From a virus (Duplodnaviria > Caudoviricetes), in the IMG/VR virus record IMGVR_UViG_3300035670_000291, positions 1 through 52,487 of that record: a stretch of 52,487 bases of DNA. The stretch is one strand, 5' to 3'. Under the pieces are notes generated by a model, which saw only the letters and a program-made list of their open reading frames with translations, was not told where the DNA came from and did not search any database. A program made the translations under genes and the position numbers. Each line of letters opens with the position of its first letter. The first letter of the stretch is position 1. Below are positions 50,391 through 52,487 of the stretch, piece after piece.

Positions 50391-50705
50391 TTAATGTGTA
50401 CTATTTAATTCGTATTCAAACTCTTTGAGTAATTCGGTTTCTATTTGATGTGCCAGAGCCTTACCCCTTACTACGTCTACAATGAACAAGTCATACACAT
50501 CTTCATTGTGTTCACGCATATCAATATACAATGCCCACTGTTTATTCTCACGTCTTGCTCTACTGAAATGTTTTTGTAAACGAAGTTTAGCTGAATAGTG
50601 GAAACGTCTGCCAATGGCTACAGTGATACCAATGTAAGATTTTCCATTTTCACTATTCACTATTTCATATATTACGTGGTTTCTATCTGAACGTTTCTTT
50701 CTCAT
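50391..50705 (-). CDS. Stand-alone GIY-YIG nuclease-domain protein
   Basis: VIYEIVNSENGKSYIGIT...RLQKH...IETELL...LN. Confidence 0.82.
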   Translation of the reverse strand: MRKKRSDRNHVIYEIVNSENGKSYIGITVAIGRRFHYSAKLRLQKHFSRARRENKQWALYIDMREHNEDVYDLFIVDVVRGKALAHQIETELLKEFEYELNSTH

Positions 50706-50710
50706 ACTAA

Positions 50711-50806
50711 TTACTTTTTAATAAAGGTTTGATAAAAGGCTTTAATTACTACATATCCAAACAAACTAACTGCGGATACTACAATGGCTTCAAAAATGGT
50801 TATCAT
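50711..50806 (-). CDS. 31-aa single-pass membrane peptide
   Basis: MITIFEAIVVSAVSLFGYVVIKAFYQTFIKK fills the gap between its neighbours. Confidence 0.5.
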   Translation of the reverse strand: MITIFEAIVVSAVSLFGYVVIKAFYQTFIKK

Positions 50807-50807
50807 A

Positions 50808-51035
50808 CTACTTATATTGGAATTTGAATTTATGAATTTGATTAGGGGTTAAAGTTTTATCACATTGTTTGTTGATAAAAGATTGAGCATCTTTTTTAGT
50901 GGTGAAAAACTTATTGGTATCATTAGGACCAGTTACCCTATACACAATGTATTTATAAGGTACAAAGTTTTCTTCGGCAAGTGCGAGAACCTTTGTAGTT
51001 TTTGTAATTTTGAATTTTGATTTGATAGAATTCAT
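50808..51035 (-). CDS. Basic hypothetical protein
   Basis: Probable start MNSIKSKF; YIVYRVTGP motif. Confidence 0.6.
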   Translation of the reverse strand: MNSIKSKFKITKTTKVLALAEENFVPYKYIVYRVTGPNDTNKFFTTKKDAQSFINKQCDKTLTPNQIHKFKFQYK

Positions 51036-51087
51036 ATTAATGTTGTTTGATGTTGTGAATGAATGTAGGAAATACAAAAGGCTGATA

Positions 51088-51459
51088 TTAATAACCAGCC
51101 ACTTTGTTAATGAATTCGTTTGAAAAACCTAAAGGTTTCAATTCAGAACGAAGTTCTTTCATAAACTTTTTAGGAATACGACCCATTGAAATAGGATATT
51201 CAGAAAGGATATTCTTCAAAGTAGTAGTTTCCTGTTTGAAGATAGAAAGAAACGCCATAGCTTCTTTCATTTTAGTTTTGTTAGCACATTTGATAACGTA
51301 CTTTTTACCTAAAAAATCGGTAAATTCTACTACCGTCAAAGGTTTAACTGAATTAGACATTTTAGAAGCTGAGAAATTCTTAAAAGGATTCTCAATAAGG
51401 TTACCTAAACGATTTGAAGATTTGATACCTTCGTTGAACTGAATTTGAAACTTACTCAT
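51088..51459 (-). CDS. Basic hypothetical protein, first gene of the early cluster
   Basis: 123 aa; A-rich leader; promoter upstream. Confidence 0.7.
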   Translation of the reverse strand: MSKFQIQFNEGIKSSNRLGNLIENPFKNFSASKMSNSVKPLTVVEFTDFLGKKYVIKCANKTKMKEAMAFLSIFKQETTTLKNILSEYPISMGRIPKKFMKELRSELKPLGFSNEFINKVAGY

Positions 51460-51504
51460 ATATAAAAAATTTTAATGTGTGGTTGGTTGGTGAATGAATA
51501 TATA

Positions 51505-51536
51505 CAAATATACGAAGATCCATAATACTGGCCAAA
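51505..51536 (-). promoter_or_regulatory. Bacteroidetes sigmaA-type promoter
   Basis: TTTG-N20-TATATTTG. Confidence 0.75.
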
Positions 51537-51681
51537 TTTTGAGAAAAAAAAGTTTATTGACAATCAATCACTTATACATATTTCTTTTTGTAATACCTGT
51601 AACTCGTTGATTGTCAATAAAAAATTTTTGAATATAGGGAAAACTGTAAAGGCCTGGAAATCAACGAGTTACGATTTTTCT

Positions 51682-51709
51682 ATTTAACATAATATAATAT
51701 ATCAGTAAA
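51682..51709. other. dif-like XerC/XerD site 1
   Basis: ATTTAACATAA (exact reverse complement of the E. coli dif XerD arm TTATGTTAAAT), 6-bp spacer TATAAT, then ATATCAGTAAA. Confidence 0.65.
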
Positions 51710-51755
51710 ACCACGCTTTTCCAGGCATAACTCATTGATTGTCAACCCTTTCCCT

Positions 51756-51784
51756 ATTTAACATAATAACACGTTATATACGGA
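51756..51784. other. dif-like site 2
   Basis: ATTTAACATAA, 7-bp spacer TAACACG, then TTATATACGGA. Confidence 0.55.
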
Positions 51785-52487
51785 ATGCAACTCATTGATT
51801 ATCAACGTTTTACGCATAACTAATTGATTCTTAATACTTTATGAATTAGAAAATTTTTATATCTAATCAGTATCCTTTTAGATAATTTCTATTTCACATC
51901 ACAGTCAAATTAAATTTTATCTAATGATCACCCGGAAAGTTAGACCAGGTCTACGTTTGGCAATATCATTTATTTTTCGTATCTTGCTCAAACCCTTATC
52001 AGGCTTGCGTTTGAAGGGATTAGACCGGTGAAGCAAAATAAAATTACTTGCGCAACTAATCTCCCTTATCCCCTTTACCCCTTATCGCAATGTTTTCTCT
52101 TATTGCAAAAAATTGTTTGCGCAGTGTGTTTGGGTGGGACTTTGCGATAAACGTTTCTATGCATTATACGCCATTACCGTTTATTATTCTTTTATACCCT
52201 ATCATAATTATTTTTATAGGGATTCCATTTTTATACACTCTTTCCCACTTACTTACACTTTCACCCACTTTTTTACTCTTATTGTTTATTTTGATACGTC
52301 TTTTCACTTTGATACACTATTTCACTTATTTCTTTCCATTCTTGCTCATCTATCTTATCTCCATTCAATAAATAGAAATTAGTTTGGGGTAATTCGTTTT
52401 GTATAAATAAGATATGATAATCTTTACTTATTGGTGAGTTAGATATTGTTTCAGTAAACATTCTTATCTTTTCTTGTGGAAATTGAT

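Follow-up and report, generated by a model that had tools for sequence, protein, structure and literature searches.

The DNA analysed here, called the window below, is a stretch of 52,487 bp from a tailed phage (IMG/VR record IMGVR_UViG_3300035670_000291), a fragment with an estimated completeness of 28%. Towards its end, within a stretch of about 820 bp that is free of open reading frames (ORFs; 51460-52279), we found two elements in tandem that resemble the chromosomal dif sites of Bacteroidota. Judging from their sequence and conservation, these elements are probably real binding sites for XerC and XerD that mimic the dif site of the host. We give about an even chance to the reading that the pair is an accessory, host-specific module of sites for the XerCD of the host, set amid promoter repeats of the phage. 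Such a module would comprise, between the repeats, two 28-bp mimics of host dif, each made of an XerC-type arm, a 6-bp spacer and the invariant XerD-type arm TTATGTTAAAT. The two mimics would stand in direct repeat on the same face of the helix (spacing 74 or 64 bp) and enclose one 18-bp repeat, host XerC and XerD would bind both, and some lineages would have lost both sites together. The host proteins are proposed as the binders because the phage is without a recombinase of its own.

Two dif-like sites in the window

An exact search found the 11-mer ATTTAACATAA exactly twice in the window, at 51682 and 51756, both on the plus strand and 74 bp apart. As a bare word it is unremarkable, with 0.35 copies expected and two or more copies in 6 of 100 shuffles. 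The two 11-mers are the core of a 20-nt direct repeat (51675-51694 and 51749-51768) in which 18 of the 20 positions are identical. Read on the gene strand, the first belongs to the element that we call site B, TTTACTGATAT-ATTATA-TTATGTTAAAT, which is the top 28-nt match of the window to a matrix of Bacteroidota dif sites (19.3 bits; the next match has 2.0, and the maximum in 20 shuffles was 14.5). Its left 17 nt reach a modest p of 0.0026 among the 17-mers of the genome, its partner arm ends in GATAT, and the homologous position is conserved in relatives. The second element, site A, reads CCGTATATAAC-GTGTTA-TTATGTTAAAT, or TCCGTATATAA if a spacer of 7 nt is allowed, the one spacer length at which it fits the inner palindrome of dif.

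Site B, the first of the two sites, is bracketed by opposed repeats (51659-51672 and 51729-51745) and by the exact 9-bp inverted pair GCCTGGAAA/TTTCCAGGC, a length reached in none of 200 shuffles of the flanks. This inverted pair was absent in all 27 relatives tested, including a close relative (L200) whose neighbouring protein is 92% identical. The positions of these features are collected in Table 1. A first-pass annotation of this DNA, made from its letters, had already described the two direct 11-mers and their distance, the divergence of their partner arms in the window (TTTACTGATAT in B, CCGTATATAAC or TCCGTATATAA in A) and the double bracketing of the first site, all of which we reproduced. 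It had also counted six 18-bp repeats around the sites; five full copies were found at up to 3 mismatches, and the sixth turned out to be a half copy of 14 nt at 51659-51672.

Table 1. Features of the ORF-free region and its first downstream gene, in window positions
Feature	Position	Strand	Remarks
123-aa gene, function not assigned	51088..51459	-	Nearest gene downstream; heads a series of small genes
Bacteroidota-type promoter of the 123-aa gene	51505..51536	-	TTTG 51536-51533, 20 nt, TATATTTG 51512-51505
Inverted pair of 17-bp repeats	51557-51573 and 51601-51617		Start positions 44 bp apart; the pair directly precedes the promoter
9-bp inverted pair	51652..51726		GCCTGGAAA 51652-51660, TTTCCAGGC 51718-51726; exact; brackets site B
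14-nt half copy of the repeat	51659..51672	-	Perfectly complementary to 51599-51612
dif-like site B	51682..51709	-	XerD-type arm 51682-51692, spacer 51693-51698, XerC-type arm 51699-51709
17-bp repeat between the two dif-like sites	51729..51745	+	Exact consensus copy; position occupied by a repeat in relatives too
dif-like site A	51756..51784	-	XerD-type arm 51756-51766 exact; partner half degenerate
Two more 17-bp repeats	51789-51805 and 51818-51834	+	From a mismatch-tolerant repeat search
Divergent promoter-like element	51956..51987	+	TTTG 51956-51959, 20 nt, TATCTTGC 51980-51987
ORF-free stretch with conserved blocks and short repeats	51990..52279	+	No ORF of at least 100 aa; relatives aligned

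Match to the dif sites of Bacteroidota

The dif search was conducted with the pattern ATAA-N6-TTATGTTAAAT-AG on one genome per prokaryotic species, and gave at least 120 matches. Among the 80 titled matches listed, most fell in Bacteroidota (Flavobacteriaceae, Sphingobacteriaceae, Chitinophagaceae, Bacteroidales and Cytophagales) and the rest mainly in Gammaproteobacteria; nearly all of the matches listed had one site per locus, and the site was single copy in four of the five whole genomes checked. A consensus was derived from the 58 listed matches titled as Bacteroidota lineages, leaving out differently named rows and 40 untitled loci. It reads TTGTCCTATAA-TTTATA-TTATGTTAAAT. In Kono et al. 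(2011; PMC3025954), dif is predicted in 19 of 19 Bacteroidetes, with the proteobacterial profile in 14.

The XerD arm of these single-copy dif-like sites is identical to that of the phage, TTATGTTAAAT. The phage elements also share with chromosomal dif the 28-bp layout of an 11-bp arm, a 6-bp spacer and an 11-bp arm, as well as the inner ATAA/TTAT palindrome, and the XerC-type arm of the relatives, TGTCCTATA, is near-identical to the consensus. The comparison with Bacteroidota dif thus identifies the 11-mer of the first-pass annotation as the XerD arm of these dif-like sites, and extends the match to the partner arm and spacer of the relatives. Three differences were noted: the pair is phage-borne instead of lying at a chromosome terminus, and has two direct-repeat copies; arm A, at its last base, and the spacers depart from the host consensus; and site B shows little conservation in its outer XerC arm.

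The similarity outside the XerD arm was most evident in G001 (L188-L199), a relative of 238,219 bp rated 100% complete. With the full dif matrix, its two sites scored 24.6 (site A) and 20.0 bits, while the next best score in 238 kb was 6.0. For most relatives the left 17 nt, which the search pattern does not force, gave p values of 5e-5 to 5e-3 among all G001 17-mers.

Conservation and loss of the pair among relatives

Relatives were gathered via the neighbouring 123-aa protein, via the repeat itself, and among metagenome contigs. The loci counted were the window, 6 loci on viral contigs and 52 metagenome loci with a near full-length match to the gene. Scoring needed at least 360 nt upstream, which left 49 loci and set 10 aside as too short, and a site was taken as the 11-mer with at most one mismatch. 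Both sites were present in 38 of the 49 loci, one site with a degenerate second in 1, and none in 10; since some loci are the same phage assembled twice, the distinct contexts numbered 30 for site A and 31 for site B. Two further loci with partial gene matches (L258 and L259), outside the 49, had no sites. The arms of the first-pass annotation are thus conserved in related phages.

In every two-site locus the sites are in direct repeat. They lie 74 bp apart in 30 loci and one helical turn closer, at 64 bp, in another 10, and in relatives, too, one 18-bp repeat sits between them. At up to 2 mismatches, G001 contains the 15-mer TATTATGTTAAATAG just twice, both times at the homologous locus. Conservation per position is highest in the XerD-type arm, in the three spacer bases next to it and in the four innermost bases of the partner arm, and drops outside the 28 bp: the XerD arm is near-invariant while the flanks vary. 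The outer XerC arm is weakly conserved, poorly so at site B. Site A of the relatives reads (G/A)TGTCCTATAT AATATA TTATGTTAAAT, its XerC-type arm matching 9 to 10 of the 11 consensus positions, and the inner palindrome is TATAT-N6-TTAT at site A and ATAA-N6-TTAT at site B. Examples are given in Table 2. The site A spacer is constant (AATATA), whereas that of site B varies (TTGATA, TGGATA, CGCATA, CGGATA, ATGATA, ATTATA). The A and B spacers of a locus mostly differ; they are identical (ATGATA) in L217 and L219, both of which retain the two sites.

Table 2. Sequences of the two sites in relatives (XerC-type arm, spacer, XerD-type arm)
Locus	Site A	Site B
L010, L011	GTGTCCTATAT AATATA TTATGTTAAAT	AAAACTAATAA TTGATA TTATGTTAAAT
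L009	ATGTCCTATAT AATATA TTATGTTAAGT	ATTTCGTATAA TGGATA TTATGTTAAAT
L006	GTGGAATATAT AATATA TTATGTTAAGT	TTTACCGATAA TTGATA TTATGTTAAAT
L008	TGTTCTTATAT AAGATA TTATGTTAAAT	ATGCCATATAA CTTATA TTATGTTAAGT

On the tree of the neighbouring protein, the loci without sites branch from among two-site loci in no fewer than five separate places, and they keep the repeat pair, the promoter, the divergent promoter and the 123-aa gene. Because they are scattered in this way, we conclude that the pair is ancestral and dispensable, and that it was lost as a unit. That both sites went together, and more than once, speaks against an indispensable origin or packaging site and fits a host-specific accessory function.

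This bears on the view that the dif match is coincidental and that the elements are sites of some other phage or host protein, for instance the small subunit of terminase at a pac or cos site, or an origin initiator. Several traits would suit such a view: the sites are unique in the genome and lie in a long, repeat-rich, ORF-free region, they are phased direct repeats with a site resembling that of IHF between them, and an AT-rich stretch and a divergent promoter are nearby. In phage lambda, cosB combines R sites with an IHF site. We nevertheless regard coincidence as decidedly unlikely. The left halves and the 6-bp geometry fit dif as well, which is very improbable by chance on top of an arm matching at 11 of 11 positions; joint loss in at least five lineages, with the rest of the region kept, would be incompatible with an essential pac site or origin; and the GC (guanine and cytosine) skew is unchanged at the locus. 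In G001 the skew is positive throughout, with no turning point genome-wide and none at the locus. The pac/cos reading was rejected on account of the repeated loss of the pair.

Dif-like sites were also seen in other viral contigs. At least 120 contigs of IMG/VR (L263-L382), many of them 4-15 kb long, carry a single dif-like site of the Bacteroidota type, with spacers that recur and are unlike the host consensus (TTACCA, TTTGCA, CTAGTA). Among the at least 120 contigs listed, the tandem 75-bp arrangement with repeats was seen only in L332 and L373. Viruses exploiting Xer may be common in Bacteroidota.

Repeats and promoters around the pair

The repeats among which the pair lies have the form TAACTCRTTGATTGTCAA, with an inner palindrome TTGA-N3-TCAA. 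Searched as the 17-mer AACTCATTGATTGTCAA with up to 3 mismatches, they occur five times in the window, all within 51557-51834 and one on the opposite strand; this number was reached by none of 100 shuffles. In G001, 20 matches were found at the same threshold, against 0-3 in 5 shuffles. Of these, 19 are intergenic, although plus-strand ORFs cover 92.7% of the genome, and they form six clusters between 58 and 108 kb, a span of about 50 kb. Each cluster is followed, 8-35 nt downstream, by a promoter of the arrangement TTTGG-N19-20-CGTATMTTTR, and then by a gene or a tRNA-like (transfer RNA-like) sequence. The promoter consensus of Bacteroidota is TTTG/TAnnTTTG, and the promoter of the 123-aa gene is of this type. 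The opposed pair of repeats at a spacing of 44-46 bp recurs in relatives, both at this promoter and at others.

Since the repeats are dispersed at promoters, they are predicted binding sites of a factor serving one class of phage promoters, and are neither private accessory sites of Xer nor iterons of an origin. The first-pass annotation had taken them for an array of accessory sites around the dif-like pair, a claim that does not hold given their position upstream of at least six promoters in G001. An iteron-type replication origin was likewise rejected, as the six promoter-proximal clusters extend over 50 kb of that genome. As to the binder, the core of the repeat, AATCAATGAGTTA, fits the E. 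coli IHF consensus, WATCAANNNNTTR, which makes a DNA-bending protein a candidate and a reasonable guess.

A comparable design is that of the MotA boxes at the middle promoters of phage T4, where a short motif peculiar to the phage likewise precedes many promoters of host type at a constant distance, and also appears in a special non-coding control region. The repeats described here differ from MotA boxes in sequence, sit further upstream, some 25-35 nt ahead of the -33 element, and often occur as opposed pairs flanking terminator hairpins. Cassettes with this last arrangement were seen at L064:1640-1816, L064:4060-4232 and L066:1365-1700, where an 18-bp repeat, a GC-rich hairpin with a T run (terminator-like), a second 18-bp repeat and a promoter follow each other; the repeats thus flank terminators besides preceding promoters. 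In L063:3000-3400 (about 59.0-59.4 kb of G001), units of repeat and promoter are followed by a tRNA-like candidate sequence with the T-arm-like motifs GGTTCGAATCC and GGTTCGACTCC.

On the other side of the pair, the divergent promoter-like element opposes all genes, and faces away from the array into ORF-free DNA. A pattern test found its block TTTGG...TTTTTCGTATCTT in 24 of 30 loci. The roughly 300 nt beyond it contain conserved blocks (GGTGGGA, TGATATACTTTTAT and CCACTCTTTAACAC) and a variable array of short repeats of the ACTCAC/ACTAAC type, also of the CCAC type. No Rfam family was found in this segment (51990..52279); in a scan of 50500-52487, the single Rfam hit was a chance-level match to a microRNA (E = 0.13) outside it. 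Three roles are conceivable for the segment, as a non-coding RNA, as a primer transcript or as a second group of binding sites for proteins. A scan for promoters of the sigma-70 type gave 15 sites where 8.7 were expected, and is uninformative for a Bacteroidota host.

Possible uses of the pair

No tyrosine recombinase (PF00589) was found in five phage records, namely the window and four relatives including the complete G001, while 14 of 14 controls were recovered. Any recombinase acting on the sites would therefore be that of the host. The use that we favour over the others, though tentatively and as no more than possible, is that host Xer acts on circular or linked phage DNA, and resolves dimers or catenanes of a circular form, be it replicative or in a carrier state. 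The distance of the locus from the assembly ends differs between two assemblies of relatives (about 238.2 and 238.7 kb), which hints at a circular or circularly permuted map. The sites cer and psi offer a parallel: they too are Xer core sites carried by a mobile replicon, in which the XerD arm is well kept and the XerC arm loose, and sequences that bind proteins lie alongside. Each has a single core, with PepA and either ArgR or ArcA binding some 180 bp of accessory sequence, whereas the phage has two core sites, and its flanking repeats are a general promoter element. Partition or maintenance functions like those of cer/psi replicons were not recognised in the complete G001, whose circular map is just suggested.

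Several observations weigh against a module serving host XerCD. Packaging from concatemers leaves a phage without an obvious need to resolve dimers, and the ParB, ParA (AAA_31), FtsK and XafT-like DUF3653 families were all unmatched in the complete G001. None of the 38 two-site loci contains a hybrid site. A query of 401 sampled Bacteroidota genomes with the 672-aa baseplate protein found no integrated member of the family, giving just two weak partial matches of 32% identity. Neither a 74-bp deletion nor a host junction was seen in the contigs of 4 of the 20 runs that hold the sequence; these contigs bridge the intact tandem pair, and contigs miss rare forms. As for the resemblance itself, the partner half of site A is degenerate in the window (p = 0.5 with the 6-nt spacer, 0.027 with a 7-nt spacer), and positions 8-11 and 18-28 of the dif matrix were fixed by the search pattern. 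Finally, the exact ATAA-N6-arm pattern was present in 26 of 201 evenly sampled Bacteroidota genomes, compared to 8 genomes with a reversed-pattern control. This proportion implies that the arm marks a subset of Bacteroidota; with the arm so confined, a lineage moving to a host with a different dif would lose its use for the pair.

The same searches bear on lysogeny of the kind practised by integrative mobile elements exploiting Xer (IMEX), such as CTXphi, VGJphi and TLCphi. Here the phage would integrate at host dif via host XerCD, and the two sites would be alternative attachment sites (attP) with different spacers. As in those elements and in the Bacteroidota microviruses and PhiCjT23-like phages, dif-like sites occur in a virus that has no recombinase of its own. 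The constant spacer of site A and the variable one of site B could match different host dif spacers, and the many other IMG/VR contigs with a single dif-like site would also suit this view. A precedent exists in Bacteroidota, where integrase-less single-stranded DNA (ssDNA) viruses are flanked by dif-like sites, according to Krupovic and Forterre (2011; PMC3091885) and to the PhiCjT23 paper (PMC9719478); the former also describes extra dif-like copies in some Xer-exploiting elements.

We consider this explanation quite improbable all the same. All 38 two-site loci are unrecombined, and among the 49 counted loci no hybrid site is followed by host or foreign DNA; nor did the 401 genomes or the contigs of the 4 runs reveal an integrated relative or a junction, within this limited sampling. 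IMEX are small ssDNA or filamentous elements, temperate and found integrated, whereas the tailed phage considered here has a genome of 238 kb with all genes on one strand, direct instead of inverted sites, and no recognisable lysogeny or XafT-like gene in the complete relative. The absence of tyrosine recombinase, ParB, FtsK and ParA-type genes from that relative agrees with the virulent appearance noted in the first-pass annotation. The integration, plasmid-like maintenance and recombination that it had also proposed found no evidence in the contigs, loci and genomes searched.

Xer could also be used without recombination, the phased pair and a bent 18-bp repeat between its sites trapping an XerCD complex. 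Such a complex might titrate XerC and XerD off host dif, act on the divergent promoters like a repressor or insulator, or bring in XerD for some other activity; in Bacillus subtilis, sites bound by XerD alone unload SMC. Much of the pattern described above would be consistent with this: the XerD arm is invariant and the outer XerC arm weakly conserved, the spacing is held in helical phase (74 or 64 bp), the sites are kept or lost together, the pair sits between two promoters, the core of the repeat, in view of the IHF consensus, may be a bending site, and the usual difference between A and B spacers disfavours productive exchange. We nonetheless think it unlikely, as it is purely inferential, an IHF- or HU-type binder of the repeats is a candidate only, and the identical spacers of L217 and L219 indicate that exchange is not always excluded. 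In a related and very doubtful proposal, the pair would capture host XerD and XerC on phage DNA, either to disable the resolution of chromosome dimers or to stop or unload translocases and loop extruders of the SMC type, which might be the host condensin or defence systems of the SMC family.

Genome context

The source is a myovirus-like phage of Bacteroidota of about 190-240 kb. The window has a GC content of about 30%, its coding-pattern genes of at least 100 aa are all on the minus strand, and its products include a T4-type baseplate wedge protein, an SbcCD-like nuclease and an endonuclease. In G001 the coding-pattern ORFs of at least 100 aa are likewise all on one strand, making it a giant phage transcribed wholly one way. 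By the baseplate protein, the nearest isolates are Microcystis phage Mel-JY01 (43% identity) and the Flavobacterium immuto phages (39%). A 16-mer (up to 1 mismatch) was not found in the more distant Microcystis phage Mel-JY01, Flavobacterium phage immuto or the uncultured LR756508, the DNA of the region had no match in the phage collection, and a tRNA scan of the window returned zero.

The ORF-free stretch that holds the pair is flanked by a partial upstream gene and by the 123-aa gene, and is a long control region fronting an operon of small genes. The 123-aa protein is kept at 59-92% identity in 25 relatives. It had no Pfam or PHROG match and none in the phage collection. Its AlphaFold model is poor (predicted local distance difference test score 66.5, predicted template modelling score 0.38), and gave no fold match at E <= 0.001. 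The protein was considered as an Xer activator or a binder of the repeats, and was dropped because of this low-confidence model without a fold match and because it is also present in lineages without the sites. Among the small genes, a 104-aa ORF (50391-50705, minus strand) matches just the N-terminal GIY-YIG part of homing endonuclease families (best PHROG E = 1.6e-8), and may be a truncated or a stand-alone nuclease domain.

Significance

Small filamentous and ssDNA phages that use dif for integration are already known to exploit Xer, and a limited literature search found no report of dif-like sites in jumbo or virulent-type tailed phages. What is new here is a phased tandem pair of Xer sites in a family of giant, virulent-looking freshwater phages of Bacteroidota (about 240 kb). 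The pair is unique in the genome and far better conserved than the surrounding DNA, and some lineages have dropped it. The promoter-upstream element and the promoter type are now defined for this uncultured group of phages, and matching of arm and spacer to host dif sites is a possible handle for assigning hosts. The family offers a testable case of giant phages that use, or interfere with, the chromosome-resolution machinery of their hosts; if capture of XerD and XerC proved true, it would represent a new kind of interplay between phage and host built on Xer.

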